Part shown: positions 9,516 through 60,100 of the stretch, piece by piece | Layout: every line of letters starts with the position of its first letter | How positions within the stretch are numbered: position 1 is the first letter of the stretch | Assembly (NCBI GenBank): GCA_016180135.1 | Contig: JACPBV010000009.1 | Location: 19,248-83,247, forward strand | DNA: 64,000 nucleotides | Direction of reading: 5' to 3' | Origin: Candidatus Woesearchaeota archaeon | GTDB taxonomy: Archaea > Nanobdellota > Nanobdellia > Woesearchaeales > JACPBV01 | Notes under the pieces: model-generated | What the model was told of the DNA's origin: nothing | The model's database searches: none | What the model saw: the letters and a program-made list of their open reading frames with translations, nothing else | Made by a program: the position numbers and the translations under genes

Positions 9516-9518
9516 GTC

Positions 9519-9570: not shown

Positions 9571-9628
9571 TTTTGTTGTTTATTATCCCTTCCTCGCTTT
9601 GCTTTTTTCTAAAGTTGCCCCTGTTGCC

Positions 9629-27827: not shown

Positions 27828-27863
27828 CTTCACCTTTCAAGATTAAAAAAAGATGGTGTGGGG

Positions 27864-42062: not shown

Positions 42063-43571
42063 TTATTTTTTAGCCTTTTTCTTGATATCAATCAAAACAT
42101 TTTTTGCAAAATCTCGTAACCTATCTTTCTTTTTTGATAGTTTAGTTCCTTTTTTTTCAAGGGAAAGGAGTTTTTCATGAATTTCCTTAACATGTTTAAG
42201 ATTATCCCCTCTAAACCGAAACCAGCCAGTTTTTGGAAATAATTGTTCCAACCGCCTATTCATCTTATCCACATCACTTGAGATATAGGCATAGGGGAGA
42301 TTAAAATTGGCTTTTGATAGGCTTTCAAGGTTTGTTTTGATTCCTTCAAGAAGCTGGGCCTGTTGAACCAACTTTATTTGCTCTCTATTCTCCCCCTCCG
42401 ACGCCTCTTGTTCTGATTTTGCTTCCTGTTCTAAGAGCTTTTTGGTTTTCTCGTCAAGAATTTCTTCCTTTTTCTCTTCGTTAATAATTGTCTTTGTATC
42501 AGAAGGGCTAAAGCTTTGATCATACAACGAGGCAACCTCTCCTTCTGCTGCAAAAACCTCTTTTGCTTTTTGTTCACTAACTGCCTCAGCTTTGAAGATG
42601 TTTGGAAGGGTTGCATAAGTTGCAGATTCTAACGCCTTTCTCTGCTCATTCAGGCTGGACATTTCCTTAATCTTTCTCTCCATATTGGGAATAAGTCCAT
42701 CAACCACTTTCCTTTCCAAAGATTCAATCCATTCCTTGTTAACTCTTAAGCGATAAAGAAGGTCTTTTTTTGCAGGATTATCTTGGTATTCCTTTAGCTG
42801 TTTTTCAAAAGAAGCTTTTAATTCTCTTAACTTAATCAAATCTTTCTCAAGATCAGATTTCATTTGTCCAAGGAGTTTTTCATCTTCGTAAGACAAGTTA
42901 TCAATCTCCGTTTGTTTTAAAAGTGTTGCTTCCCCATATCGTTGCAAGCTTTTACTATAAGCTTCAATCTTTTCTTCATCCTCCATCTCAGTTTCAACTT
43001 CTCCCTCAACATCTTTTAAGTTAGCTCTCCCTTCCCTCCACGACTTAATCTTGTTCAGTATCGGGCTCTTCTCCCAATCCACCATCCTGCTCCCAAATGC
43101 TTTGGCGCCATACGTCCCGCCCCATGCCGCAGAAGCCCCTGCGCCGGCCTTCCCCCACCCCCACTTCAAGGGCCTTCCTGCCTGGCCTAAACCCCACTTC
43201 CCCAACCTTCCACCCTGGTTCCAAATCCATCCCCTCGGCCTCGAGGTTAATCCCCATCCTAATCTTCCCAGCCCTTTTACACCTTTTCCAACTGCCATAG
43301 TTCCGCCGATTCCCATCCCAATCCCCAGCCCGGCAGCTCCCACGCCGAGTTTTGCCAGCGTTCCTCCTCCCAAAGCCCGATACTCGTCCCTTGAATTTAT
43401 CCCCGGATGCCCGCTCTCATGCTTCGAAAAAAAATAACTAAAGATAAATATCATCGTTAATCCAAATCCGATGCTTGTCAGAATTCCCGTCGTCTCAGAA
43501 GCAAAAAACGCCGCAGACACCGCAGGCAGGCTCAGAAGAAAAGCCAATAGGACAACAATCCTCTTTCCCAT
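42063..43571 (-). CDS. Signal/TM-anchored protein with Gly/Trp/Arg-rich repeat region and long coiled coil (502 aa)
   Basis: MGKRIVVLLAFLLSLPAVSAAFFA plus a second hydrophobic helix. Then GLGRLGWGLTSRPRGWIWNQGGRLGKWGLGQAGRPLKWGWGKAG, followed by ~300 aa of Glu/Lys-rich helix. Confidence 0.65.
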   Translation of the reverse strand: MGKRIVVLLAFLLSLPAVSAAFFASETTGILTSIGFGLTMIFIFSYFFSKHESGHPGINSRDEYRALGGGTLAKLGVGAAGLGIGMGIGGTMAVGKGVKGLGRLGWGLTSRPRGWIWNQGGRLGKWGLGQAGRPLKWGWGKAGAGASAAWGGTYGAKAFGSRMVDWEKSPILNKIKSWREGRANLKDVEGEVETEMEDEEKIEAYSKSLQRYGEATLLKQTEIDNLSYEDEKLLGQMKSDLEKDLIKLRELKASFEKQLKEYQDNPAKKDLLYRLRVNKEWIESLERKVVDGLIPNMERKIKEMSSLNEQRKALESATYATLPNIFKAEAVSEQKAKEVFAAEGEVASLYDQSFSPSDTKTIINEEKKEEILDEKTKKLLEQEAKSEQEASEGENREQIKLVQQAQLLEGIKTNLESLSKANFNLPYAYISSDVDKMNRRLEQLFPKTGWFRFRGDNLKHVKEIHEKLLSLEKKGTKLSKKKDRLRDFAKNVLIDIKKKAKK

Positions 43572-45048: not shown

Positions 45049-45438
45049 TTACAGCTCCATCGCAAACGTCGCAATCATCAAAAACAGCCCCATCACGACA
45101 AAGATGATGTTGAAAAATATCCCTGAAATCCACCCCATCGCCAAAAACCCGGAAACAACCCCGAACTGCCCCAGCACCTGCATAACCCCGATAGATGTTA
45201 CTGCTGCAGCGGTGATGAACGAAGGCCAGCCGATGACGTTGCTGTTGGTTACTTCAATGATAGAGTTGATAGCAAGATAGAATCCCCCAAGGGCAATCAC
45301 CCAAGAAAGCAAAGCCACAGGGAGGCTGAAGTCAAACCAGCCCGGCCCGATGCCCACCCTGTTCAGGATAGGCAGCAGCCCAAGGAGGAAGATAAGCGTT
45401 CCCGCCCCTCCGCTAAGCCAATCTTTCATCTGCATCAT
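45049..45438 (-). CDS. Small polytopic membrane protein (129 aa, ~4 TM)
   Basis: Four hydrophobic stretches (GTLIFLLGLLPIL, ALLSWVIALGGFYLAI, FITAAAVTSIGVMQVLG, IFFNIIFVVMGLFLMIATFA). Confidence 0.55.
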   Translation of the reverse strand: MMQMKDWLSGGAGTLIFLLGLLPILNRVGIGPGWFDFSLPVALLSWVIALGGFYLAINSIIEVTNSNVIGWPSFITAAAVTSIGVMQVLGQFGVVSGFLAMGWISGIFFNIIFVVMGLFLMIATFAMEL

Positions 45439-45512: not shown

Positions 45513-46514
45513 TTATGCAGCCATCCTCAGCTCTGCGCTTGCCTCTTTTTCAAGCTTTTCTTCGCTTGCGATGATTCTCCTGAATCCCTGCGCAAGGACT
45601 TGGAGCTTTTTCTGGAGCCTCTCCTTTAGCTCTTCAATCTTCTCTTTATGACTGTCTTCAAGCGCCTTGGGCATATAATGCTGGATGACATACTGCTGCA
45701 TCTGTTTTTCTTCATCGTTCAGCAGGTTAAGGTCAGTAAGGCACAGCAGGAAATCCCTCCTGAGCAGGTAGTAAGCGCCCTCGAATGCCTTTTTCATATT
45801 TGCTTCAATGTCTTTGAAAAGCCGCCCCAGCTCCTTAATGGCTTGCCCGTGATCTTTTTCCGTCCCTTTTTGAACAAGCTTTCGAAGCTCGCCATTGATT
45901 TTCTTCTCTTTTGCTTTTAATGCGATTACTCCACTTTTAATTGCCTGGATAGTCAATCTTCCTCCAAGCCTGCCAAGATTGGAAACTTGTTCCTTTTCCT
46001 TCATGAACTGGGCAACCTTTGCCATGAGGTTCGGATCGCTCGCTGCACCTTTGCCTGCATATCCAATGATTGCAGCAAGTTCCCCAAGATACAGCCCCCT
46101 TTCCTGTTTTTCAACTTCATCAGTTTGTTCCTCCATACTCAGCTGGAATTTTCTCCCAAGCTCTTTGATTTCTTTAGTAAATTTTCCCGGATGATTTCTT
46201 CGAGCATCAGAAATATCCGTTTCAATCTTGTGCAGGTAATCTAACCCCTCAGACATCTCGATCTGAGTATTGAAGCCCAGCTTCACAACATTCTCCCCGA
46301 CAATTTCAGCATAGTCCTCGGCATTGCCCTGATCCTTTGAAGCTGCTTCGATATCATGCTCATCCAGCACATCGTGGGGTATTCTGACTACAACTTCTCT
46401 TTTAAGGCGGTTCACGTTTTTAATGCCTCTTCGGATCTCCATTCTTTTCTTAAAAGCGAGAATTCCCCCTGTCTTATGAAACACCATAATATAATAGTTT
46501 TTGACCCATCCCAT
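45513..46514 (-). CDS. Hypothetical helical/coiled-coil protein (333 aa)
   Basis: Clean ORF, Lys/Glu-rich helices, no motif recognised. Confidence 0.6.
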   Translation of the reverse strand: MGWVKNYYIMVFHKTGGILAFKKRMEIRRGIKNVNRLKREVVVRIPHDVLDEHDIEAASKDQGNAEDYAEIVGENVVKLGFNTQIEMSEGLDYLHKIETDISDARRNHPGKFTKEIKELGRKFQLSMEEQTDEVEKQERGLYLGELAAIIGYAGKGAASDPNLMAKVAQFMKEKEQVSNLGRLGGRLTIQAIKSGVIALKAKEKKINGELRKLVQKGTEKDHGQAIKELGRLFKDIEANMKKAFEGAYYLLRRDFLLCLTDLNLLNDEEKQMQQYVIQHYMPKALEDSHKEKIEELKERLQKKLQVLAQGFRRIIASEEKLEKEASAELRMAA

Positions 46515-46637
46515 TTTCCTTCCACCTCGATTGTGTTTTTCTCAAGCCTCTTTTTTATCTCTTTTGAGTTTGAATGTATTTAAAGGTTCTGATTTCTTTT
46601 GCAAATATTGGTATGTGGGCCAGTTCCTCCTGTCTTT

Positions 46638-48278
46638 TCATTTTTTTCCTTCTTTCTTATCAATATGCGCTTGAATTAACTTTGCTATGTCTTCATGCCC
46701 ACTTTCATTTGCCCGATCTATTGCCGTTTTCCCATATTTATCTTTGGCAAGAGGATCAGCTCCATTCTCTAACAAAATTTTTACAACCTCAAGAAATCCT
46801 AGTCCAGCAGCATTCACTATACAGGGTTTCTGGTACCTATTGGCAATATTCGGATCAACCCCCTTCCCCAGCAAAATTTTTACTATCTCAGGCTTGCCAT
46901 ATTCTACTGCTTGGACTAAATAAGCTTCTCCTGATTGACCAATGCTTTTTTGATCAACGCCCTTTTCGAGAAGCTTTTCAACAACGTTGGTGCGTCCTAT
47001 GTAAATTGCCCATTCAATTGCGGTTAAGTTGTTCTTTTCATCAATAGCGGCCGGATTAGCTCCTGCTTCAAGCAATTTTCCTACAATATCCGCATAACCC
47101 CCTATGGCTGCCGTAATTAGGGGTGTAATTTGGTATTTTTCAGTTACAGCATCAACATTGATACCTTTGGCTGACAACAATTTTTCAACAGTTAAGGGCA
47201 TTTTCCATCTTGCAGCATAATGCAGGCATGACTCTCCATCGAGCAAAATGTTTGGATCAGCCCCTTGACTGAGCAGCTCTTCAACCTCTTGATCGCGATT
47301 CCACCGGACTGCCTCACTCAGTTTAGTATTTAAATCAGCCTTTTCCTCAGCGCTATCAATCTCTCTCTTTTCCGTATCTCCTTTGGCATCAGGAGGGGCT
47401 TTGGGGCTTTCACCTTCAGGCTGCTTTTGTGGAGTTTCATCAGCTTTTTCTTTTTCATTTTTTGCCGAAATCTCCTTTGCTTTGTCAAGGATAATTTGAA
47501 TCTCATTTTGGGCAGATTTAAGTTTTTCTTCAATTTCCGGAAGTTCTTTCTCATCAATAGTTTTTTTATGTGCTCTAATTGAATTTGATAATCTGTTTCT
47601 GAAATCCAAAAGGTTTCCTAACACTCCTTTTTGCTTAAATCCATTAATCAGGGTTTTGAGCTCATCGCCCCCCTCTGCCGCTATAAGAGACCTAGCCGTT
47701 TTAAGATTATCAGTTAGTTTGGAAATTCCATTTTCAAGATTCCGGATTCTGCCTATAAATGCAATAATTTCCTCATCCTGCTGGTCATTGGGTGTTTCCT
47801 TTAATTTAAGGTAGTTGGTATAGCGTTGAAATGCAGAATTCAAGTATCCCTGCTTCCTGGATGCATCTCCCCTTATCCTTAAAGTAATTGCCTTTTGGCT
47901 GTTCGATAGCTTATTCCAAACCTCACCGGACAATAATCTGTCAGTAGAGAAATCACAATCCTGGTATCTCCCAAGCATATAATAAATTCTTGCAAGGAGC
48001 AGTTCTGCAAAATAATCATCAGGATTAGCGCCAAGATGCAATTTAAGCGACTTCCGGTATTTATCTTGTTTTATCACTTTTATGATGCGGGTATCAAAAA
48101 CCTCCATCTTATTGAGCATATAATCCGTATATTTTTCTCTGGACTGGAGTATAGGGAGCCGGAGTGTAAGCAACTTTAGCCCCTCTCTCCCCAGCTCTTC
48201 CTCCATTACTTTGACTGTAAAATAGTCTCCTTTCTCAGGCTTCACTTCGACTGTAAGGTTTTTTTGTTCTTTTCCCAT
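46638..48278 (-). CDS. TPR-like plus coiled-coil plus ankyrin-repeat protein (546 aa)
   Basis: At least six C-terminal ankyrin repeats (CLHYAARWKMPLTVEKLLSAKGINVDA; TPLITAAIGGYADIVGKLLEAGANPAA; LTAIEWAIYIGRTNVVEKLLEKGVD; YLVQAVEYGKPEIVKILLGKGVDPN; IVNAAGLGFLEVVKILLENGADPLA; KTAIDRANESGHEDIAKLI). The start codon overlaps the stop of the 1720-aa gene by one nucleotide at 48278. Confidence 0.85.
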   Translation of the reverse strand: MGKEQKNLTVEVKPEKGDYFTVKVMEEELGREGLKLLTLRLPILQSREKYTDYMLNKMEVFDTRIIKVIKQDKYRKSLKLHLGANPDDYFAELLLARIYYMLGRYQDCDFSTDRLLSGEVWNKLSNSQKAITLRIRGDASRKQGYLNSAFQRYTNYLKLKETPNDQQDEEIIAFIGRIRNLENGISKLTDNLKTARSLIAAEGGDELKTLINGFKQKGVLGNLLDFRNRLSNSIRAHKKTIDEKELPEIEEKLKSAQNEIQIILDKAKEISAKNEKEKADETPQKQPEGESPKAPPDAKGDTEKREIDSAEEKADLNTKLSEAVRWNRDQEVEELLSQGADPNILLDGESCLHYAARWKMPLTVEKLLSAKGINVDAVTEKYQITPLITAAIGGYADIVGKLLEAGANPAAIDEKNNLTAIEWAIYIGRTNVVEKLLEKGVDQKSIGQSGEAYLVQAVEYGKPEIVKILLGKGVDPNIANRYQKPCIVNAAGLGFLEVVKILLENGADPLAKDKYGKTAIDRANESGHEDIAKLIQAHIDKKEGKK

Positions 48279-51200
48279 CAGCTATCCCTTTTGAAAGTTA
48301 AAGCGTATTTCCGTACTCCGGAGGATACAGTTACTGGTTTTCCATCAAGCTTGGCAGGAAGCTCATCAGATTGCGCCTGTTGGATGATGTCTTGAGCCTT
48401 TTCCGGAGAAATTTCTTCTTGTGCAGCAGGAAGCGCATAATCCGATGTCGGGTTGGGGATTTTATTAAACTTTTTGACCGGAATAACAATAATAGTGGCT
48501 TCATCTAAAAGCCTATTATCCTTCTGATTTAAGCATTCAACGATATAATTCCCGGAAAATAATGGGCCCACCTCAACTTCTCCAGTCTTTCCAGGCTTGA
48601 TTTCCTGTGTTATTTGCCGTTCGACCCGATAAAGCCCGGGTCGTGTCGGAATAAATCTTTTTAATTTCCATAAGACCTGAAACCCCTTTCCCCCCGCATT
48701 GGCAACAATAGTGGAGAGTAATGTGCTTGAGGGAACCTGGACGGTCTTATGCAATGGGACTGGGTATGCTCTTCCCCCGATAACAATCTGGGAGATAGAA
48801 AATTCAGGATTTACCAATATCACTATTGTTGCAGTTTGCTGGCCGGTAATATACCATGAATCAATCCCCCCATACTCTTTAACTCTGCGTAATGCCTCAA
48901 AAGTCACCGTATATTCCCCAGGCTTTTCAAAAGTACGCAATGTTGTGAATATCTCCTTCCCATGATAGGGAAAAAATGTCGGGGTTCCTTGTATATCTGA
49001 CCAGACCCATCGGTATCCATCAGGTCTTTCCTTTAATTTCAGGGGAACTGTAATCTCAAGGGTCTCTCCAAGTTTTGCCTTAAATGCCTTACCATCCCTG
49101 AAAACCGCCCCTTTTGACTGCGTGCTGCGAACCATAACCTCCCCAAGAACTATCTTTCCTCGCTTAGCTTCCCTTTTTGGGATCGTCGGAGAAGGCTGCT
49201 TAATCTGCGTTTGGGCAAAAGGCACTTTTTCTTCGTGCCTGCCGACTGAAAGATAGGCTCTTTTTACCTGTGTGCTAAATCCAATTGGCGTGAAGATGAT
49301 TTCATATTCTCCTTTGGGGAGGCGCGTATCGGGATAAACAATAACTTCTGAAGAGGAAGATTCACCTTCTTCGGGTTTGCGGTGGTTTCTTCGCATTGGT
49401 AAGATAACTGCTGAATAAAAGAATTTCCTTGGGGGATTCTTAACTGAAATGCTGAAATCAACAACATCTGTCGGAAGGAGTCTATACCCTATAACTTCTT
49501 TTTTTTGATATTGAATCCATGCTGGATCCAACCTTTTTCCATTAACTCTCGGTATGATTGGGCCAAGGCTCAGAGGAGGGGGTTCTTCCGTTTGATAATC
49601 TGCGCTTTCTCTTGATATCTGTTCCTGCATCTTTTCGACAGAATCAGATTCCTTATCCTCAGGTATTGCATCTACAGATTTTTTCCTGGATTCACTTGGG
49701 CTTGAAGCCTCATCTTCGTTTACCTTGCCTTCACCCCCCATTTTCTTTTTTTGCCGTTTTGGGCCGGGTTTCTCCATGAAAGAAATAATCGATTGGATGT
49801 CCTCTAGTACTGTTTTTACATTCCTGGCTGTTTGCTCAATAATAAGATTCTGCCATTCTCTATACCAACTTAATAGATGTTTATGGGCAAAATCCCAGTT
49901 AAATGAAAGCACCATGCTTCCAATTAATCGTTGCATCTCTTCAACAATCTCGGGAGAGATTATCTCCTGCGTTTCTTGTATTGCTTTGTCAAGAGGGGTA
50001 GGATATTCTTTCAGACGGGAAATCTCAGTTTTAAGTGCAACAATCCATTCATAGGAATCCTTGAATTCAGCCTTTTTATTTCTTATCTTTGGATAAACCT
50101 CAAGGAATTTTGCGATCGCATCTGTTACTGGCTTCAATCCTTGGTCAATAGCTGCCCCCCACCCCCCTCCAATGGAGAGGAGTTCTTTTAATTCTTTGTC
50201 AATCTTTTCTACGAATACTTTATATCCTACACCATCAAAAACATTTCCGTTTTTTTTCCATTCCTCTTCACCGACGTAATCACGGATACCCTCGTTGATA
50301 AAATCTTTGGGACCCGTAAATTTCCCTTGTGCCCTTCCTCGGATATATTCTTTAATAGAGCCAAGGGGCTGTTTTGAAAGCTCGACAGCAAATTTTTTTC
50401 GGAAGGCTTCAAACTTTCCTTGATCGGCTTTAGCTACAGGGAACTTGTTCCTGATGTTCTCCAAAAATTCCTTGTTTGCTCGTTTCTCAAGATTGTTTAT
50501 TGCCTGCTTTAGTTTTTCCTCAATGTCCTGGGGCATCAACTTTAGTTTATGTTCCAGCTCAAGGAGCCTTGACGACTGGTAGACTCTGATGCTATGAATC
50601 AACCTTCTTAACATATCCCTGTGCATCGATTCAACATCTTCCTGAGATTCCCGGTCTTTACCGCCTGGGTCATCAAATCTTCTTTGTCTCCTCAATTTTT
50701 CTTCAATCCCCCTCTGCCTTGCCTGTTTCCTTTCTTCCTTCTTAACCACTTCATAAGGCAGTTCCGGAGTTTCAGGTCTTTTTAATATGACCTGAACTTC
50801 AGCTTGGTTGAATGGAATGAATTCATCAATAACTGTGGCGGTAACTTTTAATTTTGCATGTCCAGGGGCATGATCCGATGCGATCGGAAGAGAGCTTGGA
50901 CTGCTTCGCAGGAATCTTCCTTCATGAAGAAGCTTTTCTTTTCCATTATGGTCTTGTATATACCAGCGGTATTTGAATTTCTGTTCATCATGGAAATAGC
51001 TTGGATAGGCCCCCTCAAAATCCGCTTCCAAATCATATACTGGCTGTCCAATGATTAGTTCAGCGTTGTCCCTCGGTCTGACAACTACCATCTCATTCCT
51101 AACCACGGTGATGGGCACTTCAGCAAACGCGCGGGTTTGGTTGTTTTCAAATTCATAAAGTATTACATGAATAATTCCCTTTCCAGAAACCTGGGGCGGT

Positions 51201-53440
51201 AATATTGCTGGATTGTCTTTATTGGATTCATGCCCATCAAAAAATGGAATCCCCTCCCCTTTCTGGCTAATAAAGAACCATCGGAAAGAAAACCTTTTTG
51301 TGTTGTAGAACTCATCGGGGAACGGCCCAGTTACAGCTGCTTTAAGGTGAGTCAAAGGCACTCCGGAGAAAAGCACTTCCCCTTTTCCGGGTTTTTCTAT
51401 TGCAAGCCCCATGACTCTCACAGGAACTTCGGTGAAGGCAAAATTGTTCCGTTCACCATTGACTATCTCAAAGGCATACAAAGAAACTTTAGCATTTCCT
51501 ACTTGAGAACTAGGACTGATTATCTTGCTCTGGTTCTTTTGAAGGGTGGATAGCCCATTAAAAAGATGTTGTGTGTGTGGGTTAGATTCTTGTAGATACC
51601 ATTGAAAGAAGAATTCCTGGTGCTTAAATGGCTTAACCGGCTTATGGAACTCTGCCTGCAACTTCGGGATAGGCATCCCCGCAAAAACAGGATCATTTGG
51701 CTTCGGATGAATAATCTCAAGGGCATTTTGTTGCTTTGGTTCAACAACAAAATATGCAGCTTTTTGGACAGCGCCTTCCCCCTTCTGAGGATAAGGGAAA
51801 GCAGCCACTCTGATGTAATGGATTCCCCTTTCTGAAAATTTTACTTCGGTTGTAAGCTCAGGGTCGTTGTTGTAGGGGAATCTTTTTATATCACTTTTTC
51901 CTTTTTTGCTTTTTGGCATCCCGTAGTCCCAAGATATCTCCTCAGGAGAGCCGTCAAGAACTTTGGATATAGCAGTAATCCAGGTATTCTGGGGAACTCT
52001 GTAGAAATTTCGGTTTTTCTGCACACCTTCACCTTCGATTCGTAAATCTGCCAATATAATTGGTGCTTTCTCTAAATCTGGCAATTGCAGCCTCCTAAGC
52101 GGTATCACCACCTGGCTGTTCTCAAAGTTAAAATCTGTTGTATGCAAATAATGGCCAGGAATCCCGCCAAAATCCTTGAGAATGTGCCATCCCAGATGCA
52201 TCGCATCAATCGGCGTTGTGCCAGTGAATGCAACCACAAGGACAGCTTTCTTGCCGATGGGAATCTGGAAATCAAACTCTCGGTCATAGGGGACAGGAAG
52301 GAATTGGGTTTCACCCCCGGTGGGTGTCTTTATCCTCAAGGCCGCCTGGAATATTCTCCGGTCAGGTTGTCCAGTTTTGAGCCATTCTTCCAATAATGAA
52401 AGAATCTCCGGTGTGCAGTTTTCAACAGCAAAAATCGTAACTGTAGAGAACTTCCAGGGGTCTTTCGGATCGACTTTTACAGTTATTGTTGAAGTCGGCG
52501 GCCCAGTAGGTGGTGAAGGAGTTTGTGGCTTAGGCTCAGGTGGTGGCTCTTGAGCCCCTCCATCTCCCCCAGACCCCCCATCTCTCTCATCCTGACCTCG
52601 TTCCACAACCTCTTTATGAGTGGCAGTTTGTTTTTCTTCGGCAGGCACATCTTTATTTTCCTGAGGCTCTTGTTTGGGTTGCGGAGTATCCCCTTCATCT
52701 AGATCCCCGCCCTCACCTTGCCCTTTTTCTGTAGGTGTGCCAGAAATGGTTGCATCATCTGATTGGGGGGAAGTTGTTCCTTTCAGATTCTCATCCGTTA
52801 CATCTTCGGTTGGCGATTCACCGGATGAATCTTTCTCTGTAGCAGGTTCGAGTTCAGAATCTTCCGTGGCTGTAAAATCCCTTTTAATGAGTTTCAGTTC
52901 TTCGGGAGTTAAAATTGTTCCAGATTCAGATTCTTGACTTGTGTTTGGGACAGAATCTTTAGGTTGGCCTTTTGATTTATTGAATTCTTCTCTCTGCCCT
53001 GCAATAGTGTGCATGGTGCGAGAGAATGGTTGACCTTCTAATATACCAGATTCTTCTCTTCCCTCACCTGCCTGAGGAAACACTCGGCCTAAAGACAAAA
53101 TGAGGCCGTTAATCTTTAAACTCAAATCCTGCTGATCAATAGGATTATCAGTCCCCTTAAACTCAATTGTTTGTAAATTGGTTAGGGTGGCTTTTGCATC
53201 TTCCCTTTCATCCCCTTTAAGCTTTTCTATCAACATCTCTTTTAGCCTACTAAGATAACTCACCTCCTCAGGGGATAGGCTTCTGTTTACCGCAATATTC
53301 GCAGCCCCAGCTAAAGCCTCAATCGCATCCTCAGAGGTTTTAATTTCTTTGTTAATATCAAGCATTGTGGCATTCTCTTCAGTAACATGGGGGATCTCTC
53401 TTTCCCGACCTGCGATAGTGCTTGGGTTTGATATTGCCAT
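48278..53440 (-). CDS. Giant hypothetical protein (1720 aa), no N-terminal signal peptide; acidic/Pro-rich N-terminus, beta-rich repeat modules, central helical region
   Basis: Uninterrupted 5.2-kb ORF. Acidic low-complexity aa ~150-300 and a PPPEPKPQTPSPPTGPPTS linker. Three tandem ~105-aa repeats (nt ~50780-51720). The C-terminal third contains further beta-sandwich-like segments. Confidence 0.85.
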   Translation of the reverse strand: MAISNPSTIAGREREIPHVTEENATMLDINKEIKTSEDAIEALAGAANIAVNRSLSPEEVSYLSRLKEMLIEKLKGDEREDAKATLTNLQTIEFKGTDNPIDQQDLSLKINGLILSLGRVFPQAGEGREESGILEGQPFSRTMHTIAGQREEFNKSKGQPKDSVPNTSQESESGTILTPEELKLIKRDFTATEDSELEPATEKDSSGESPTEDVTDENLKGTTSPQSDDATISGTPTEKGQGEGGDLDEGDTPQPKQEPQENKDVPAEEKQTATHKEVVERGQDERDGGSGGDGGAQEPPPEPKPQTPSPPTGPPTSTITVKVDPKDPWKFSTVTIFAVENCTPEILSLLEEWLKTGQPDRRIFQAALRIKTPTGGETQFLPVPYDREFDFQIPIGKKAVLVVAFTGTTPIDAMHLGWHILKDFGGIPGHYLHTTDFNFENSQVVIPLRRLQLPDLEKAPIILADLRIEGEGVQKNRNFYRVPQNTWITAISKVLDGSPEEISWDYGMPKSKKGKSDIKRFPYNNDPELTTEVKFSERGIHYIRVAAFPYPQKGEGAVQKAAYFVVEPKQQNALEIIHPKPNDPVFAGMPIPKLQAEFHKPVKPFKHQEFFFQWYLQESNPHTQHLFNGLSTLQKNQSKIISPSSQVGNAKVSLYAFEIVNGERNNFAFTEVPVRVMGLAIEKPGKGEVLFSGVPLTHLKAAVTGPFPDEFYNTKRFSFRWFFISQKGEGIPFFDGHESNKDNPAILPPQVSGKGIIHVILYEFENNQTRAFAEVPITVVRNEMVVVRPRDNAELIIGQPVYDLEADFEGAYPSYFHDEQKFKYRWYIQDHNGKEKLLHEGRFLRSSPSSLPIASDHAPGHAKLKVTATVIDEFIPFNQAEVQVILKRPETPELPYEVVKKEERKQARQRGIEEKLRRQRRFDDPGGKDRESQEDVESMHRDMLRRLIHSIRVYQSSRLLELEHKLKLMPQDIEEKLKQAINNLEKRANKEFLENIRNKFPVAKADQGKFEAFRKKFAVELSKQPLGSIKEYIRGRAQGKFTGPKDFINEGIRDYVGEEEWKKNGNVFDGVGYKVFVEKIDKELKELLSIGGGWGAAIDQGLKPVTDAIAKFLEVYPKIRNKKAEFKDSYEWIVALKTEISRLKEYPTPLDKAIQETQEIISPEIVEEMQRLIGSMVLSFNWDFAHKHLLSWYREWQNLIIEQTARNVKTVLEDIQSIISFMEKPGPKRQKKKMGGEGKVNEDEASSPSESRKKSVDAIPEDKESDSVEKMQEQISRESADYQTEEPPPLSLGPIIPRVNGKRLDPAWIQYQKKEVIGYRLLPTDVVDFSISVKNPPRKFFYSAVILPMRRNHRKPEEGESSSSEVIVYPDTRLPKGEYEIIFTPIGFSTQVKRAYLSVGRHEEKVPFAQTQIKQPSPTIPKREAKRGKIVLGEVMVRSTQSKGAVFRDGKAFKAKLGETLEITVPLKLKERPDGYRWVWSDIQGTPTFFPYHGKEIFTTLRTFEKPGEYTVTFEALRRVKEYGGIDSWYITGQQTATIVILVNPEFSISQIVIGGRAYPVPLHKTVQVPSSTLLSTIVANAGGKGFQVLWKLKRFIPTRPGLYRVERQITQEIKPGKTGEVEVGPLFSGNYIVECLNQKDNRLLDEATIIVIPVKKFNKIPNPTSDYALPAAQEEISPEKAQDIIQQAQSDELPAKLDGKPVTVSSGVRKYALTFKRDS

Positions 53441-53464
53441 TTTTTTCAGTTTTTTTTATTTGGA

Positions 53465-56077
53465 TTATTTGTTATTAGGTTGTCCACTCTGCTTCCATTT
53501 AAGCGAGGAAGCTTCTTGGGGAATTCTTAACTGGCCATTTCCCATTTCTGCATATCTTTTATTGAGGTCTGGAACATCGCTCGGCCCTTGCTCTCGAGCC
53601 ACCACCTCACTCCAGACTTGTTGAATAGTTACATCCTCACCCCTAATTTTTCGTCTTCTAAACTCCTCTCGGACAATTTCCCCTATTCTTGGATTACTTC
53701 TTTGCCCGTCATCTTGTTTATGGTCACCCCGAGCGTTTATGATGGTTGGGGCTAAATATCCATAGGAATCAATTGGTACCATTCCTCCCCCCCGGGGGAT
53801 ATAGTTCACCATCCCCCGTTGGGTTGTTGGCTTTCCTTCTATGACTTTACCTTTAAACGTCACATAATTTCCTCTCAGCACAAGAGGGACTTTTATATTA
53901 TCAATAAGCCCCGTGATAGTAGGTATTGGATTCAATCCTGAGCCCCCAAGCGCAGTATTTGTGTGATAGCCAATTCCAAGGGCATCTTCATGGTAAGCAA
54001 TGACAATAATATTCTTTGTCCCAGCTTTAACCCCATCAATGATGAACCCCCCATCATTTTCGGTTTTTTTGTTAGCATTGAAGCGGGGTCTATTCTCTAA
54101 AGCCTTTTCAAGTTCTTGTTTTGTTATGAGCGTCTTATTTCCTAATCTTTGGATAAGGCCGGGAAATGCCTCTGCCGCAATAACTTCCGCATTTCCAACG
54201 CCTTCATCAGTATTCGCCTTGATGACTTTTCCAGAAATGCGGGAATCGTAAGTGAAAGCCTTTTCTAATGTTGCCTTGAAAGTATTAGCTTCAATAACAA
54301 GGTCAACGGTCTGTCCGGGAGGGCCTGCAGGAGTCACTCCTTTGATAGAGGTTCCCTTGAGGTCTATCTGGACATTAGTTAAAGGATTGCTTCCTAACAG
54401 GATTCTCGTTGCCTGGCCGATATTAGCGCAATAGATGGTAACTGTTGTGCCCCCGGAAGCAGGGCCACGATTAGGATTAACAGAAAAAATAGTTGGCTTT
54501 TTAATCTCACTTAAAGATTTTAAAATTTTGATTTGTTCATTTAATTTTGTTATCATTAAGTTAATGAAATGAAATTGGCAATCAGTTGTTAGGTGTGTCA
54601 CGTCAAATGGAGTAGTTGTTGTCTTAAGACAAGATTCTATTATTTGTTTTATAGCCTCAACTCTTGTTTTTGCCCATTTGCCAGATAACCTGTCTTCCAG
54701 CCTTTTTTCAAACGCAGCTTGTGATTCTCCTAGGGCTTTTTGTTCATTGAGATGAATAAGTTCGGTATCTGTAACCCCCTCTTCCTGTTTGAGGGGTATT
54801 TTTATCTTTCCAGCAAAGCCTATAACCTCATTGCAGATTGAAATTCCACCTTCTAATACTTTTATCTCTCTAAGAATTTGTCCAACAATATAATTATCGT
54901 GCCCTACTTTTTTTAATACATCATTCAATCTATCTTTGTTATCAGTAAACATTTTCAGGTAACCATTCTCCATCCTTTCTATATGGTTAATTCCTTGGTT
55001 AAGCTGTTTGATTCGTTCTTTATTATCGAGCTGGAGAAACCAGAGCTGCCATACTGTCTCGTAAAGGTGTTTTCTCAGGATGAACTTTTTGACAGCATGG
55101 CCAACTAAATATGTCGGCGGCCTGAGATAAGCTCTCCAGTTATCAGAATCTGCGCCCATTAATCCCTGTTTTGGGGGTTTTTCCCTAATGTCCCACATCT
55201 TCTCAAGGAGCTTTTTCTTACCATCCTGTATATTTGTTAACTCGTCTATTGCTTTTTTCTTTCCTTCGATAGAAATAGCCAATGGTGTTAGAGGTGGAAT
55301 CTTCCCCTTATGTTTCCAAAACAGCAATAACAGCAAAAGCACCACCGCCAACAGCCCTCCCCCGCCATACCCGGCTATCTTCCCCCACGGAAGGCCGTCT
55401 TCTTTTTTCTCCTCTTTTTTAGGCGTCGCTTCTTCTTTTTTCTCCGGTCTGTCCGGCGTTGGAACTGGAACTGGCTGAATTCCGCCGTCAGGAGGCGTAG
55501 TTCCCTGATATGGCGCAGGCGCTAATGGCCCGCCCCTGCCTCCGAATCTTCCGCCCAATCCTGAAAACCAGTCCAAAAATCCAGTCCCAAATCTTCCTTC
55601 CTGGGTCATGTACCATGCCCACAGCACCAGCAAAGTCGCTATCAGGAAAGCCAAAAACAAAGCCCATCCTTTGTGGTTCTCCAACCCCATCTTCAGCAGC
55701 AGCAGATAAATAATCAAAACAAGGATCAAATACGCCAGCCCGAGTGCGATATACCCAAAATTGATGAGCTTGAACTTATTCGTCACAACAAGGATGATGG
55801 AAGCGAGCATCGCAGCTGCCAAACAGAACACCGTTACCGGCTTAGTGATCTCGCCGAACGCGGTCTTTGAGCCGATGAGGAACGCAGCAAAGAAAAGGAA
55901 GAACAGCAGCAAAAATCCGAGCGTTGCCTCATACCGTTCCCAGCCGCTCTGGAAAAAATTTTCCATCGAATCCCATACATTGAAGAAAGCATCCCCGATT
56001 GCCCCAAAAGCAAAAGGCGCGAGCGTGATAGCTAGGAAAATCCCCAGCGCCAAAATTCCGATCATCTTCCTGCTCAT
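53465..56077 (-). CDS. Polytopic membrane protein with IPT/TIG-like and carboxypeptidase-regulatory-like beta domains (870 aa)
   Basis: About 5 N-terminal TM helices, a Gly/Arg and Pro-rich linker and one further TM (GGGGLLAVVLLLLLLFW), then a helical region. IFSVNPNRGPASGGTTVTIYCANIG...GVTPAGPPGQTVDLVI is IPT/TIG-like (nt ~54250-54490). ISGKVIKANTDEGVGNAEV follows. Confidence 0.85.
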   Translation of the reverse strand: MSRKMIGILALGIFLAITLAPFAFGAIGDAFFNVWDSMENFFQSGWERYEATLGFLLLFFLFFAAFLIGSKTAFGEITKPVTVFCLAAAMLASIILVVTNKFKLINFGYIALGLAYLILVLIIYLLLLKMGLENHKGWALFLAFLIATLLVLWAWYMTQEGRFGTGFLDWFSGLGGRFGGRGGPLAPAPYQGTTPPDGGIQPVPVPTPDRPEKKEEATPKKEEKKEDGLPWGKIAGYGGGGLLAVVLLLLLLFWKHKGKIPPLTPLAISIEGKKKAIDELTNIQDGKKKLLEKMWDIREKPPKQGLMGADSDNWRAYLRPPTYLVGHAVKKFILRKHLYETVWQLWFLQLDNKERIKQLNQGINHIERMENGYLKMFTDNKDRLNDVLKKVGHDNYIVGQILREIKVLEGGISICNEVIGFAGKIKIPLKQEEGVTDTELIHLNEQKALGESQAAFEKRLEDRLSGKWAKTRVEAIKQIIESCLKTTTTPFDVTHLTTDCQFHFINLMITKLNEQIKILKSLSEIKKPTIFSVNPNRGPASGGTTVTIYCANIGQATRILLGSNPLTNVQIDLKGTSIKGVTPAGPPGQTVDLVIEANTFKATLEKAFTYDSRISGKVIKANTDEGVGNAEVIAAEAFPGLIQRLGNKTLITKQELEKALENRPRFNANKKTENDGGFIIDGVKAGTKNIIVIAYHEDALGIGYHTNTALGGSGLNPIPTITGLIDNIKVPLVLRGNYVTFKGKVIEGKPTTQRGMVNYIPRGGGMVPIDSYGYLAPTIINARGDHKQDDGQRSNPRIGEIVREEFRRRKIRGEDVTIQQVWSEVVAREQGPSDVPDLNKRYAEMGNGQLRIPQEASSLKWKQSGQPNNK

Positions 56078-56601
56078 CTTCTTGCCTTCCGGATAGCTTC
56101 TAAGATCATCTCTTCGCCGAACAGCGCTTTTCCTTTTGCAAGGATGCCCGCAACATCCGCTTCTTTTTGGATCAAAGCTGCACTGAACTGCTCTTCAGTC
56201 TTGCAGATAACATTCACTTCCTTCATCTCCCTGTAGATTGCGCTCTTCACCTTTTCAGCCTGAGAAGTCACAACAAGCAGCTGTTTTCCGTCAAAGATCG
56301 CAGCTTTGCTTTCGTGGGCGATGCTTAAGAAAGGAATCTCAGCGGCTTCAGCCTTCTCCAGCAGCGCTATCGCTCCCAGGTGAAATGCTTTTCTCTCGTT
56401 AAGGTTGACCTCATAGAACAGCCCAGTCCCAAGCTTCTCTGCCTTGACTATGCCGTTGCTCTCTAATTTCTTCAGAGCCGCATGCGCCCCTGCTGCGCTG
56501 AGCCCCATCTTCACAGCAAGCTCGTTGATAGTATGCCTTTGGGAGAAGTTTCTAAGCAAAAATCCGATTATCGCAAATTCGTTCTTGCTTATCGAGAGCA
56601 T
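56074..56601 (-). CDS. Winged-helix transcriptional regulator (175 aa) heading the operon
   Basis: FAIIGFLLRNFSQRHTINELAVKMGLSAAGAHAALKKLESNGIVKAEK. 4-nt overlap with the 870-aa gene start. Confidence 0.7.
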   Translation of the reverse strand: MLSISKNEFAIIGFLLRNFSQRHTINELAVKMGLSAAGAHAALKKLESNGIVKAEKLGTGLFYEVNLNERKAFHLGAIALLEKAEAAEIPFLSIAHESKAAIFDGKQLLVVTSQAEKVKSAIYREMKEVNVICKTEEQFSAALIQKEADVAGILAKGKALFGEEMILEAIRKARR

Positions 56602-56639
56602 TATCCGTTTTTACCTGATAAGGCATCATTATTATTGAG

Positions 56640-56935
56640 GTATTATATAAATATTATGATTTACAATACAAAGAAGCTTATTGAACCTACTAATTAAAAA
56701 CTAGCTAATATTAAAAATATGGAGTCTAATCATAAAATTAAAGAGTATAATACTAAAAATAAAATGCATAGTAATAAAAAGATGTATGCCTAGTGATATA
56801 AATACTAAAAATATAAATAAAAATAGGTTAATAATATTAAAAAAACTAATAATTAATAATAAAAAATGTTCGTTTATACTAAAAAAATTACTAATATAAA
56901 TCACCACTAAATAATAGTCACAAAAACCAAAGCTT
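56640..56935. promoter_or_regulatory. Extremely AT-rich divergent intergenic core (roughly 80-85% A+T by eye)
   Basis: Lies between the divergent starts at 56601 (-) and 56965 (+). ATACTAAAAA recurs at ~56750, 56802 and 56876, and there are many CTAATA words. Track ORF 56701..56907 here is an AT-composition artefact. Confidence 0.6.
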
Positions 56936-56964
56936 TAAATAGCCGTAATAATTCTTCCCACCCT

Positions 56965-57108
56965 ATGAAGCACCGCATCTCGGTCTCAGTAGAAGAAAGC
57001 ACCATAAAAGCCGTTCAGGATACCTTAAGGACGGGAAAGTTCAGGAACAAATCGCACATCATCGAATTTGCGGTGCAGCAGTTCCTCGGAGGAAAAAATG
57101 GCCGATGA
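56965..57108 (+). CDS. Ribbon-helix-helix (CopG/Arc/MetJ-type) DNA-binding protein (47 aa; below ORF-track cutoff)
   Basis: My translation is MKHRISVSVEESTIKAVQDTLRTGKFRNKSHIIEFAVQQFLGGKNGR, a beta-strand/helix/helix pattern typical of RHH proteins. It overlaps the next gene's ATG (57098) by 11 nt. Confidence 0.55.
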   Translation: MKHRISVSVEESTIKAVQDTLRTGKFRNKSHIIEFAVQQFLGGKNGR

Positions 57109-57853
57109 TCACGGACATGATGCTCCAGCCCATGATGCCCATGGCGCTGCTCCGGCAGCTCCCTCAGCAAGCCCGGCAGCAGTCGGAAACTTCTTGGAAG
57201 ACCTGGTAAAAGGCACCGAAAGCCTATGGGAAGGCGTTAAAGGTATTCCTGAAGTTGGGAAAGACGTTATGAGAGTTTCTTGGGATGTCTCGATAGCGCT
57301 TGGCTCAGTAGGATTAAGCTATTCTTGTGTTGGCATGGACGCTTTGATCCTTGGAGGTGGCTTTGGGACCGGAACTCTGGTAAAAAACCTTATCAAAGGA
57401 GAATCTCCTTCCTTAAACGAGCTTTCAAAATCAATCCGTGTTGGCGCTATCCTTGCAATCCCTACCCATTACACATTTGAAGGTGTTGGCATGGCCGGAG
57501 CATGGGCAAAAGCCCATTATGGCAGGACAGCAGGCATCGCCGCAAGGGCGGCATTAGGCGTTGCAAACATCCCCCCGTTCATTGAGATTGACGAGATGAT
57601 AAGGAGAATGATGATTGCTGATTACAAGCCAGTTCCATGGGAAGAGCGCTGGAGAAAGAACCTGGCAACAACGGCAATGTTCTCCCCTCTTGTAGCCGTT
57701 AACCTTAACCTCCCTGAGTTTTTCCCAGGTTACAACCCCATGTTCGGCGCAGCATTCAACACAACAGTCTATTCAGCCGCCTTTGGAGTCCCAAGACAGA
57801 AGAAGGAAGATAAGCCTGCCCACGCATCAGTCGGGCCTCAGGAGCATAATTAG
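57098..57853 (+). CDS. Hypothetical membrane-associated protein with His/Asp-rich N-terminus (251 aa from ATG 57098)
   Basis: MADDHGHDAPAHDAHG..., then Gly/Ala-rich hydrophobic segments (ALGSVGLSYSCVGMDALILGGGFGTG, VGAILAIP, GMAGAWA). No family recognised. Confidence 0.6.
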   Translation: MADDHGHDAPAHDAHGAAPAAPSASPAAVGNFLEDLVKGTESLWEGVKGIPEVGKDVMRVSWDVSIALGSVGLSYSCVGMDALILGGGFGTGTLVKNLIKGESPSLNELSKSIRVGAILAIPTHYTFEGVGMAGAWAKAHYGRTAGIAARAALGVANIPPFIEIDEMIRRMMIADYKPVPWEERWRKNLATTAMFSPLVAVNLNLPEFFPGYNPMFGAAFNTTVYSAAFGVPRQKKEDKPAHASVGPQEHN

Positions 57854-58090: not shown

Positions 58091-60100
58091 TTAACTTTTA
58101 TCCCCCCTCAATTTTTTGTTTATTGAAGTGATGTCTATGCTAAACGGATCCATATTGAGATCACTCCCAAAAATGCGCGGACCATAATCGAACCCCAAAG
58201 TTTCTTTGGCAGCATGTTGGAGGTCATGATGTATCTCTTCAATCTTTTTCCCATTCCGGCAAATGTATTCTATAAAAAACATAGACATGCCTCTGGTTGT
58301 AAGGACGGGAGAAATTTGCTCATTTTTGGGGACATTCTCAACATGCTCATAATATCTTTTTTTTCCAATATACATAAATCCCAATAATCCTTCTTCCATA
58401 AGATGCTCAGATAAAACTCTAAAATCGCATGCGGGATTTAGGTTAGTTGCCTCCCTTGTCGGGGATACCTCATTGAAAGTATCTCCCTTCTTTGTTGTGT
58501 GGGGATGACGAAATCTTAAAGTGTAATCCCTAAATGATTTGCGCCCCGGCATTGGCGGATCTGCAAGCTTTTTAGCTGCCTCGATATTTTTTCCTTTATT
58601 TTGCCTAAACACAGGTACATCAACAAAATCCCACGCACCTTCTGGTGTGGGATTATTTGCCATAATATAATCCATGACGGTTAGGCTGTGGGGGTGATAC
58701 CTGCCATCCCTCAGATCATCACGGTATTCATCCCACTCATTAAATATATAATTCACCATCTCAAGGGCATCAACATCAGTGATCAAATCATGATATTCTT
58801 CGGGGATGACTCTCCATTGACCTCCTCGATCAACATAGTCTGAATCAGGAAAACTGAATACGTCCAGAAGAAAAGTGCCTTTCTTTAATCTCTTTTTTTT
58901 ATATTCAAGGCTTCCATCAGGGGTTTTTGTAATGCGTTTAAATTCATAATCTTCATTAGCAACTTCAAACTCCATGCCATATTCATCCAAAAGATACTCC
59001 ACTTCCTCAATCTCTTGTCCTCTGTTATCCTTATTAAGATCTAATGCCCCGCCTTTGCTTTTACTGCGAATCAATTTATTTCTCTCAAAAAGGGTTTTTA
59101 GCTCAGTAATTTTTATCTTTTCTTTAATTCCCTTCTCACTAATATCGAGGGAACTCGTTTTTATTGTTTCATATGTGTGCCTGTATAAAATGTTTTGGGG
59201 AATATTCGATTTAACCATTATCCGATAATTCCTAAGCTCCTTATGAAGATTTATCAACCCATCCAAAAATGATTTGTGTTCTTGCTCACGCACAACAATA
59301 GATTTGTATCCGGTTGATTCCCATTCACCAAAAAAAGTGGCTAACTGACTTATAATCTCCTCGATACCTGATTTGAATCCACCAAAAAAAATTCCCCTCT
59401 GTTCATCAATAGTATTTAAGTTCGGCGCCGGTATGTTTGTCCTAATCCAATGTTCAACATGCAGATTAATCTTATCAATTATACCGGTGTAAATCTTTTT
59501 TAGAGCTTCATGATGATCATAACCGAAGTATCTTACCCGTTGCACATATCCTGAGGGGAAGGTTATTTCAACTTCTCGCGGAATTGGAACTCCAAATTTC
59601 TTCCCAAGAATCTCAAAAGGCTCAGCTTTAATCTTACTCCCACGTATAGCACTTTCTTTCCCCGTTGATTTATGGATGATAATTTTTTCAAAATCCTCTT
59701 CAAATTCGTAATACTCACCTTCATTAACGCTTGTTGCTTCTTCAAAACCAGTCCCACCCCTTAAAGAATATTCGCTCTCAACAACATCTGGGTGCGTGTA
59801 AGGTCCAAGTTTAGCATAAATCCCAGCTATGTTTGGTCTTAAATCCTCCTCAATATTATAATACGTGGGAAATTCTTTGCTTGGGTTTTCAATAAGCTTT
59901 AAATGTTCGTTTAGTTTGTTTAAAATTGAAAATAACTCCTCAATGTCTAGGGTGGGTTCAAGACTCTTTTTACCAGCCCTGCTAAATCTAAAATTTAGCC
60001 CAAAACGCCTAAATGGTTTCGTAAACCTCCTTAAACCAGCTTTTATTTTGTCTCCAACCCACCCAGCGTATTGGTTTCTTTCGCTTCCAGCTTCAGACAT
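58091..60100 (-). CDS. Hypothetical protein (669 aa from MSEAGS), paralogue of the 610-aa protein; G-R-Y-HPHSL motif
   Basis: Clean ORF. Start trimmed to ATG 60100, giving an 8-nt overlap with the upstream gene. The motif GRYHPHSL is encoded at ~58682-58705. Confidence 0.8.
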   Translation of the reverse strand: MSEAGSERNQYAGWVGDKIKAGLRRFTKPFRRFGLNFRFSRAGKKSLEPTLDIEELFSILNKLNEHLKLIENPSKEFPTYYNIEEDLRPNIAGIYAKLGPYTHPDVVESEYSLRGGTGFEEATSVNEGEYYEFEEDFEKIIIHKSTGKESAIRGSKIKAEPFEILGKKFGVPIPREVEITFPSGYVQRVRYFGYDHHEALKKIYTGIIDKINLHVEHWIRTNIPAPNLNTIDEQRGIFFGGFKSGIEEIISQLATFFGEWESTGYKSIVVREQEHKSFLDGLINLHKELRNYRIMVKSNIPQNILYRHTYETIKTSSLDISEKGIKEKIKITELKTLFERNKLIRSKSKGGALDLNKDNRGQEIEEVEYLLDEYGMEFEVANEDYEFKRITKTPDGSLEYKKKRLKKGTFLLDVFSFPDSDYVDRGGQWRVIPEEYHDLITDVDALEMVNYIFNEWDEYRDDLRDGRYHPHSLTVMDYIMANNPTPEGAWDFVDVPVFRQNKGKNIEAAKKLADPPMPGRKSFRDYTLRFRHPHTTKKGDTFNEVSPTREATNLNPACDFRVLSEHLMEEGLLGFMYIGKKRYYEHVENVPKNEQISPVLTTRGMSMFFIEYICRNGKKIEEIHHDLQHAAKETLGFDYGPRIFGSDLNMDPFSIDITSINKKLRGDKS

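Follow-up and report, generated by a model that had tools for sequence, protein, structure and literature searches.

The eukaryotic membrane skeletons of the ankyrin-spectrin, filamin and titin type combine an integral membrane protein, a giant repeat or rod protein (made of Ig-like repeats in filamin and titin) and an ankyrin adaptor, all of them non-enzymatic. Here we describe an archaeal gene cluster with a possibly analogous set of parts. It lies on the minus strand of a 64,000-nucleotide stretch of DNA (hereafter, the window; positions 19,248 to 83,247 of contig JACPBV010000009.1) from a metagenome-assembled Candidatus Woesearchaeota genome (GCA_016180135.1), and it encodes, in order, a winged helix-turn-helix (wHTH) protein, an 870-amino-acid (aa) polytopic membrane protein (the anchor), a 1720-aa giant protein, a 546-aa ankyrin-repeat protein, a 333-aa helical protein and a 129-aa membrane protein. 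In contrast to the eukaryotic skeletons, the cluster has no spectrin repeats and no ZU5, UPA, death or actin-binding domains, and shares no homology with them beyond the generic ankyrin and Ig-like folds. Bacterial hub proteins (HubP/FimV, TipN and PopZ types) provide a second parallel, being membrane-associated, client-recruiting, fast-evolving and lineage-restricted, with long acidic disordered regions and coiled coils; however, hubs have no Ig-like or ankyrin modules, and the cluster has no LysM domain, FimV C-terminal domain or Pfam match of that kind. A third parallel is with FHA-containing membrane scaffolds of bacterial secretion and septal systems (YscD/EscD, EssC, the Fha protein of the type VI secretion system and FraH): one orthologue of the anchor joins transmembrane (TM) helices, a predicted cytoplasmic FHA domain and further β domains, but the FHA domain is found in that relative and not in the window, no ATPase or secretion genes are located nearby, and there is no sequence match to these scaffolds. 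Finally, the SPEARE proteins of Nanohaloarchaeota are giant DPANN proteins with adhesion-type domains and a proposed role in host interaction; they are mostly extracytoplasmic and TM-anchored, and carry serine protease and restriction-endonuclease domains (PMC6642349). The 1720-aa protein differs from them in lacking a TM segment, a signal peptide and, in Pfam and NCBIfam scans, any enzymatic, serine protease, laminin-G or restriction endonuclease domain.

A preliminary description of this stretch had stated that the combination of proteins has no described counterpart, and our searches of Pfam, NCBIfam, PHROGs, PADLOC, PDB sequences and PDB folds agree with that statement. Matches to the operon in NCBIfam, PHROGs, PADLOC and PDB sequences do not go beyond its HTH, TIG and ankyrin modules, domain profile scans detected no catalytic domain in any operon protein, and we found no description of the locus in the literature on Woesearchaeota or DPANN archaea with ankyrin, giant or FHA proteins. 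To our knowledge, the contact sites between DPANN archaea and their hosts have no assigned proteins on the cytoplasmic side, and archaeal cortical and landmark scaffolds are poorly known. The reading that we tentatively favour is that the locus encodes a non-enzymatic, lineage-specific and fast-diversifying scaffold that consists solely of protein-binding modules and is tethered to the inner face of the membrane. With its conserved regulator-anchor frame and its interchangeable Ig-like, FHA, IPT/TIG and ankyrin modules, which are predicted to be cytoplasmic, the locus is a testable candidate for such a structure, and it defines four new protein or domain families: the anchor, an Ig-like repeat that we call the WY repeat, the 333-aa helical protein and the 129-aa membrane protein. 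Its novelty rests on the absence of matches to described systems, and it is one DPANN gene cluster among many uncharacterised ones.

The six open reading frames (ORFs) are the wHTH gene (56074-56601; 175 aa) and the genes of the 870-aa (53465-56077), 1720-aa (48278-53440), 546-aa (46638-48278), 333-aa (45513-46514) and 129-aa (45049-45438) proteins. Reading the junctions directly gave the same layout as the preliminary description. The wHTH stop and the 870-aa start share ATGA (a 4-nt overlap), 24 nt separate the 870-aa stop from the 1720-aa ATG, and the 1720-aa stop and the 546-aa start share 1 nt (TGATG), whereas the gaps ahead of the 333-aa and 129-aa genes are 123 and 74 nt, respectively. 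Judged from these junctions, the wHTH, 870-aa, 1720-aa and 546-aa genes are translationally coupled. The 1720-aa gene is annotated at NCBI under locus tag HYU14_02650, and the operon products are listed there as hypothetical proteins of Candidatus Woesearchaeota archaeon. Its ORF cannot be extended further upstream and occurs in identical copies on 4 contigs of the collection (NCBI and Logan; one Logan copy comes from run SRR4343430), and it is therefore not an assembly artefact.

In a word-indexed search that covered 5.8 billion protein clusters, the 1720-aa and 870-aa proteins matched themselves alone, and a concatenated profile of the anchor, 333-aa and 129-aa proteins recovered only the window proteins and one 88 per cent identical fragment of the 129-aa protein. 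This index misses relatives at 30-60 per cent identity, and such relatives do exist in public contigs. Scanning GTDB species genomes with the adjacent PAC2 protein yielded 5 related loci, and scanning metagenomes with an alignment of the 129-aa protein yielded 19 further loci (designated below by L numbers); their ORFs were compared by local phmmer and jackhmmer. The related loci have a common frame: a wHTH gene overlaps by 4 nt with the gene of a polytopic anchor that has a signal peptide, and a variable middle leads on to the genes of the 333-aa helical protein and the four-TM 129-aa protein. Specifically, L006, L011 and L014 have the same order of a u685-like gene, a divergent p261-like gene, the wHTH gene, the 4-nt overlap and the anchor, and their wHTH proteins are 51-55 per cent identical to that of the window. 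Identity changes steeply along the locus: it is 56-70 per cent for PAC2, ~60 per cent for the 129-aa protein and ~30 per cent for the 333-aa protein, and cannot be detected for the genes that lie between the anchor and the 333-aa gene. Relatives preserve the synteny of the regulator-anchor pair and of the flanking genes, which, together with the overlapping starts and stops, bears out the earlier proposal that the genes form an operon and a functional unit.

Within the variable middle, the same kinds of module are fused in one relative and split in another. The fused form, in L014, is a single protein of 1403 aa. In it, the anchor and a helical region are followed by one WY repeat, a β repeat of ~105 aa whose x-F-x-W-Y strand is conserved; an FHA domain (32.3 bits) comes next, and three IPT/TIG domains (E = 1.6e-33) close the series. 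The fusion physically ties the WY repeat to the anchor and the TIG domains. The split form, in L016 (from the same population as L002), has five genes, which encode an anchor of 327 aa, a helical protein of 504 aa, a TM-plus-helical protein of 384 aa homologous to residues 228-540 of the L014 protein, a 960-aa protein with six WY repeats, and a protein of 446 aa that ends in ankyrin repeats and starts inside the stop region of the repeat gene. The last of these follows the WY-repeat protein as the 546-aa protein follows the giant, and is its positional analogue. L006 and L011 have a shorter form, in which the anchor and one helical protein are followed by two opposite-strand genes. This clear natural case of gene fusion and fission provides Rosetta-stone evidence that links the parts of the locus to each other. 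Both L014 and L016 come from metagenome Ga0233437, so that fused and fully split architectures coexist in one community.

These comparisons bear on the simplest alternative, namely that fast-evolving, lineage-specific ORFans lie side by side in a variable region and have no joint function. The giant and most of the other two proteins do lack relatives, both among 1.84 billion representative proteins and in the related loci, and the locus is patchy among relatives. However, the genes overlap at their start and stop codons, modules of these types come back in relatives in an unchanged order and, in one case, as a fusion, and the 5.2-kb ORF of the giant is intact in a genome of 43 per cent GC and identical on all 4 contigs. 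We regard the absence of a joint function as the least probable of the explanations considered here.

The giant protein has no hydrophobic segment on a hydropathy scan, and hence, as had been claimed, no signal peptide or TM helix. An exhaustive phmmer search of the 1.84 billion representatives with its residues 451-1650 returned only the protein itself. From its composition, the giant may be divided into five regions. The N-terminal region (aa 1-312; 52505-53440, minus strand, as for all regions below) is acidic and low in aromatic residues (isoelectric point 4.3-4.7), contains 42 per cent Pro, Gly, Ser and Thr over aa 131-312, and is likely disordered. It is followed by an aromatic-rich region of presumed β domains (aa 313-572; 51725-52504), which has no family match in Pfam or in the related loci, and by three tandem WY repeats of ~105 aa each (aa 573-890; 50771-51724). 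The central region (aa 891-1235; 49736-50770) is basic, rich in Lys, Glu and Arg and presumably helical or coiled coil, and no relatives of it were found. The last region (aa 1236-1720; 48278-49735) appears from its composition to consist of an acidic linker, ~360 aa of presumed β domains and a tail; a PKD domain (PF00801) at aa 1457-1516 scored 18.4 bits in Pfam, below the cutoff of 23.5 (Pfam calls are judged throughout against the gathering score of the family).

The WY repeats are the only part of the giant that is common to relatives. A hidden Markov model (HMM) built solely from seven repeats from outside the window recovered the 1720-aa protein with a full-sequence E = 4.9e-10 and three domains (at 572-628, 679-730 and 784-871), whereas the next best match had an E-value of 0.22; apart from the L014, L016 and 1720-aa proteins, the repeat was found in no other ORF of the window or of the related loci. 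An AlphaFold2 model of the third repeat, aligned with its two sister repeats from the window, reached a predicted local distance difference test score (pLDDT) of 84.1 and a predicted template modelling score of 0.77. In a Foldseek search of the PDB, this model matched only generic Ig-like β-sandwiches (the Ig-like domain of Izumo1 and the V domains of T-cell receptors and antibodies) at template modelling scores of 0.4-0.5, and for this reason the WY repeat is, as modelled, an Ig-like domain of no specific known family. The 1720-aa ORF as such is absent from every relative found, with only the three central repeats in common, and this bears on the weight that the preliminary description had placed on its presence in close relatives: the 1720-aa protein is best seen as lineage-specific cargo and not as a conserved component. 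By sequence comparison, the giant is not conserved as a protein, but its position recurs, and so do the type of repeat at its core and the ankyrin protein that follows.

The 870-aa protein has six hydrophobic segments (hydropathy), in line with the earlier estimate of about six TM helices. Its first part, the membrane anchor proper (aa 1-256; 55310-56077), opens with a signal peptide or TM1 and continues with four TM helices, a predicted extracellular loop of ~70 aa rich in Pro and Gly, and finally TM6, as delimited by hydropathy and the family alignment. The family comprises proteins of L006, L011, L014, L016 and L005, in which the first 200-250 residues are ~40 per cent identical to the 870-aa protein. 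Compared with the PDB, the family profile gave nothing meaningful; a match to ATP synthase b (E = 0.004) covers a TM-plus-helix segment only, and we read it as compositional and not as homology. In a more distant relative, L005 (positions 5154-10708; Nanoarchaeota RS_5_44), two tandem anchor paralogues flank an 87-aa mini-wHTH. NCBI annotates the gene as 741 aa with a start at Met130 and so loses the signal peptide along with the initial three to four TM helices; we favour the 870-aa start because relatives, too, have the 4-nt overlap with the wHTH gene and a signal peptide at the N terminus.

Beyond the anchor lies a helical region (aa 257-527; 54497-55309), assigned from a low-confidence model and predicted from the topology to be cytoplasmic, which has no relatives, the related loci included. 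One IPT/TIG Ig-like domain follows at aa 528-610 (54248-54496). The preliminary description had named this domain, and it scores above the Pfam cutoff (TIG, PF01833; E = 4.6e-8, 33.4 bits against 20.9), matches a plexin IPT domain in the PDB (E = 2.6e-4) and is 34 per cent identical to the TIG repeats of the L014 protein. The C-terminal part (aa 611-870; 53465-54247) has no Pfam match and probably comprises a second, degenerate Ig-like domain and a basic tail, as the BLAST alignment to the L014 TIG array continues over aa 528-730 (E = 5e-9). A CarboxypepD_reg-like domain had also been proposed; it has no Pfam match at E <= 0.1, and the region in question aligns with the L014 TIG array instead.

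The 546-aa protein (46638-48278) consists of a unique helical N-terminal half (aa 1-312) and an ankyrin half (~313-546), as seen from Pfam and the junction read. Ankyrin repeats occupy aa ~315-540 in four stretches (Ank_2, E = 2.4e-38; PF12796 and PF00023 families), so the ankyrin part of the earlier assignment holds, whereas the TPR part does not: TPR_2 reached 13.4 bits against a cutoff of 27, over a single stretch of 18 residues.

On which side of the membrane these modules reside is central to their interpretation. All anchor homologues begin with a signal-peptide-like segment, and in all of them the loops after TM2, TM4 and TM6 are rich in Lys and Arg, whereas those after TM3 and TM5 carry few positive charges; in L016, the second of these, which is long and rich in Pro and Gly, has four Cys. 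Under the positive-inside rule, loops rich in Lys and Arg are cytoplasmic, and hence everything after TM6 is predicted to be cytoplasmic, leaving exposed loops of only ~25 and ~70 aa. The L014 protein has no hydrophobic segment after residue 247, and its WY, FHA and TIG domains therefore all lie on the same side; modules of the FHA and ankyrin kinds are mostly intracellular. The composition of the giant was compared with that of a second giant of the window (27858-33929, plus strand), a protein of 2023 aa with a signal peptide, a C-terminal TM anchor and no Pfam match, which is probably a real giant surface protein of this genome. The 2023-aa protein has 152 Cys and 72 N-X-S/T sequons (3.56 per 100 aa, 2.4 times the expectation), compared with 2 Cys and 7 sequons (0.41 per 100 aa, equal to chance expectation) in the 1720-aa protein. 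With no signal peptide, no C-terminal anchor and no enrichment in sequons or Cys, the 1720-aa protein does not look like a surface, S-layer or adhesin giant. Because of the charged-loop topology, the fused FHA domain, the ankyrin partner, the missing signal peptide and the non-surface composition, the modules most likely lie in the cytoplasm rather than outside the cell.

The preliminary description had interpreted the locus as an envelope, cell-contact or host-interaction apparatus. In such a scheme, the giant and the IPT/TIG domain would be exported non-classically for attachment to a host; alternatively, the ankyrin and Ig proteins would resemble effectors and reach the host via a cytoplasmic bridge. 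That the organism belongs to the DPANN archaea fits this idea. Ig-like, PKD-like and IPT/TIG domains are characteristic of adhesins, and ankyrin proteins are well known as effectors aimed at a host; the 546-aa protein gives NCBIfam matches to Legionella ankyrin effectors, if only via its repeats. The middle of the locus also diversifies fast between relatives, as interaction interfaces would. On the other hand, the giant has neither signal peptide nor TM segment and differs in composition from the secreted 2023-aa giant, L014 places its WY, FHA and TIG domains after an inward-facing TM6 with no later TM segment, the anchor exposes only its two short loops, and no secretion-system genes were found among the scanned ORFs of the window. 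The inward direction of TM6, the FHA fusion, the missing signal peptide and the few sequons and Cys speak against the outward-facing interpretation, and we consider it unlikely.

In the scaffold reading that we favour, the 870-aa protein would enter the membrane by its signal peptide and five further helices, with only short loops outside, and its helical stalk and IPT/TIG Ig-like domain would project into the cytoplasm. The signal-less 1720-aa protein, with its putative disordered acidic head, Ig-like β-sandwiches and central helical rod, would dock on the anchor, and the ankyrin protein would serve as an adaptor that recruits further partners, so that the three proteins would assemble physically. 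The wHTH protein presumably controls the operon, and the 333-aa and 129-aa proteins would form a more conserved membrane pair, usually beside the wHTH-anchor module. Candidate roles are the organisation of the membrane or cortex, a landmark that localises proteins, and the inner base of a contact site. A more specific proposal, which seems unlikely to us, is that the anchor tethers the giant and the ankyrin adaptor under the membrane of an episymbiotic DPANN cell as a membrane skeleton or base plate, and organises the cortex or the cytoplasmic face of a site of host attachment or cytoplasmic bridging; if so, the fast shuffling of modules would reflect adaptation to different hosts.

Several observations weigh against an internal scaffold. 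The topology is based on hydropathy and the positive-inside rule and not on a dedicated predictor, and the Ig-like, IPT/TIG and PKD-like domains of prokaryotes are more often extracellular. An AlphaFold2 model of the full 870-aa protein made without an alignment was unusable (pLDDT 39.6) and was not fold-searched. There are no relatives of most of the cytoplasmic part of the 870-aa protein, of ~80 per cent of the giant or of the N-terminal half of the ankyrin protein, so conservation cannot vouch for these parts. Two relatives (L003 and L004) do not have the locus beside PAC2, and the divergence is extreme for a housekeeping structural element, with PAC2 70 per cent identical and the middle genes unrecognisable. 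This fast turnover of modules is the strongest point against a plain housekeeping skeleton, and leaves some probability for a role related to conflict or to a host.

A conflict-related role could take the form of a defence island, that is, a hypervariable cassette directed against viruses or mobile elements, between conserved flanks and under a wHTH regulator. The conserved flanks around a middle that differs in every relative fit this possibility, as do the weak Csa3/CasR-like PADLOC matches of the wHTH protein (via its HTH) and the occurrence of ankyrin proteins in candidate defence systems, of which PDC-M72A and MzaA were matched through the repeats. Yet no nuclease, ATPase, protease, nucleotidyltransferase, TIR, Sir2 or other effector domain was found, the PADLOC matches are confined to the HTH and the ankyrin repeats, with none for the anchor or the giant, there are no repeats of the kind associated with diversity-generating retroelements, and the variable proteins consist of structural modules only. 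We consider a defence role quite unlikely.

Three further ideas were examined and set aside. As to diversification driven by a diversity-generating retroelement, no direct repeats of at least 40 nt are present in or near the operon, and no search aimed at a reverse transcriptase was made. A viral origin was rejected, as PHROGs matches arise only via the ankyrin repeats and a weak match of the wHTH protein, and the 129-aa family is absent from IMG/VR viral contigs. A mobile-element reading suggested by the nearby integrase was ruled out because homologues of the integrase and its neighbours flank PAC2 in L005 as well.

The wHTH protein consists of an N-terminal winged helix of the MarR/ArsR type, the winged helix as such having been recognised earlier (MarR_2, 29.5 bits against a Pfam cutoff of 27; HTH_24, 29 bits against 21.9), and an uncharacterised C-terminal domain of ~100 aa; it has no equivalog-level NCBIfam match. 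Its coupling to the anchor suggests a further explanation, in which the locus is a membrane-anchored signalling assembly: the small outer loops of the anchor would sense a cue from the envelope or membrane, and phosphorylation-dependent FHA contacts, together with ankyrin and Ig contacts, would relay it to the wHTH protein. Translational coupling of the regulator and anchor genes is seen in four lineages, a different HTH regulator occupies the same position in L016, and one orthologue has an FHA domain. However, a single relative has this domain, the locus encodes no kinase, phosphatase or other enzyme of signalling, and a 1720-aa scaffold is oversized for a relay, which makes a signalling assembly decidedly improbable.

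Upstream of the wHTH gene lies an AT-rich divergent intergenic region of ~360 bp (56602-56965), with a TATA-like box, TTTATATAA, at 56643-56651, ~45 nt upstream of the wHTH ATG. The relatives have a similarly large intergenic region, and TATA-like elements are conserved in an alignment with L006, L011 and L014. We infer that this region contains the promoter of the operon. The 123-nt gap ahead of the 333-aa gene contains a TTTAAATA box, and the 333-aa gene probably has its own promoter. A scan for bacterial-type promoters and terminators, which is not applicable to archaea, gave background levels.

The trailing 333-aa and 129-aa genes had been described as following the operon in the same orientation; their orientation and gaps stand, but the pair is a separate conserved module and not a mere operon tail. 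Two opposite-strand genes separate the anchor module from the pair in L006, L011 and L013, and in L008 the pair is present with no anchor nearby; for these reasons, we read the locus as two modules, wHTH-anchor-cargo and the 333/129 pair, which are often adjacent but do not form one obligatory operon; both would be specific to a DPANN lineage of the Woesearchaeales type. The 129-aa protein has four hydrophobic segments (4-TM by hydropathy) and is the best-conserved protein of the locus, with 22 homologues in the related loci, ~60 per cent identity and an invariant IE-x-TNSN motif in the alignment. The 333-aa protein is all-helical and represents a new family. Of the 18 informative metagenomic loci, 16 encode a member of this family immediately ahead of the 129-aa homologue, and so do the two genome loci with a 129-aa gene (L002 and L006). 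Its family profile has no Pfam or PDB match (PDB searches gave only designed helical repeats at E about 0.1), and none of 13 family members matched Snf7 or PspA_IM30 (ESCRT-III and PspA-Vipp1) at E <= 0.1.

Downstream of the 129-aa gene, most relatives encode a protein of a second helical family and, after it, PAC2. The second family was considered as a paralogue of the 333-aa family, to which it is not demonstrably related (hhalign probability 10 per cent). In L005, the position of the 333/129 pair, just upstream of PAC2, is taken by a protein of 336 aa, SPFH/band-7-like on visual inspection, and a helical protein of 152 aa. In the window and loci L007-L024, proteins with an Ala-Ala C-terminus make up 9 of 17 in the 333-aa family (that of the window has the ending ...ELRMAA), 7 of 10 in the second helical family and 2 of 4 in the p261 family, against 0 of ~211 other distinct ORFs of the same loci. 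The locus adjoins the gene of the proteasome assembly chaperone PAC2, and the Ala-Ala ending could be a degron or a sorting signal.

On the other side of the divergent intergenic region, the window encodes a Gly/Ala-rich protein (57068-57853, plus strand), with conserved family members at the corresponding position in L006, L011 and L014; just ahead of the start of its gene lies TATTTAAAG, a conserved element. Further on, proteins of 685 aa (58091-60148) and 610 aa (61704-63536), both encoded on the minus strand, are distant paralogues with a common C-terminal region that contains an HPHSL motif; no family match was found for either, and in L006, L011 and L014 the wHTH-anchor module has a homologue (455-813 aa) of the 685-aa protein as its conserved neighbour on the upstream side. 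Close to the locus, a 502-aa protein (42063-43571, minus strand) is a further membrane-anchored helical protein without a family match; it combines a signal peptide or TM segment with a stretch rich in Gly and Trp and a long, Lys/Glu-rich presumed coiled coil. The window has no tRNA genes or Rfam elements, and its remaining genes are ordinary archaeal ones, which encode PAC2, a GAN/RecJ-like DHH protein, a Xer-type integrase and enzymes of sugar metabolism. The gene of the 2023-aa surface protein contains a 42-nt internal repeat (at 27990 and 30201), and between it and the DHH/RecJ-like gene there are three tandem copies of a 56-nt sequence (27323-27490), the second and third of which are 95 and 71 per cent identical to the first.

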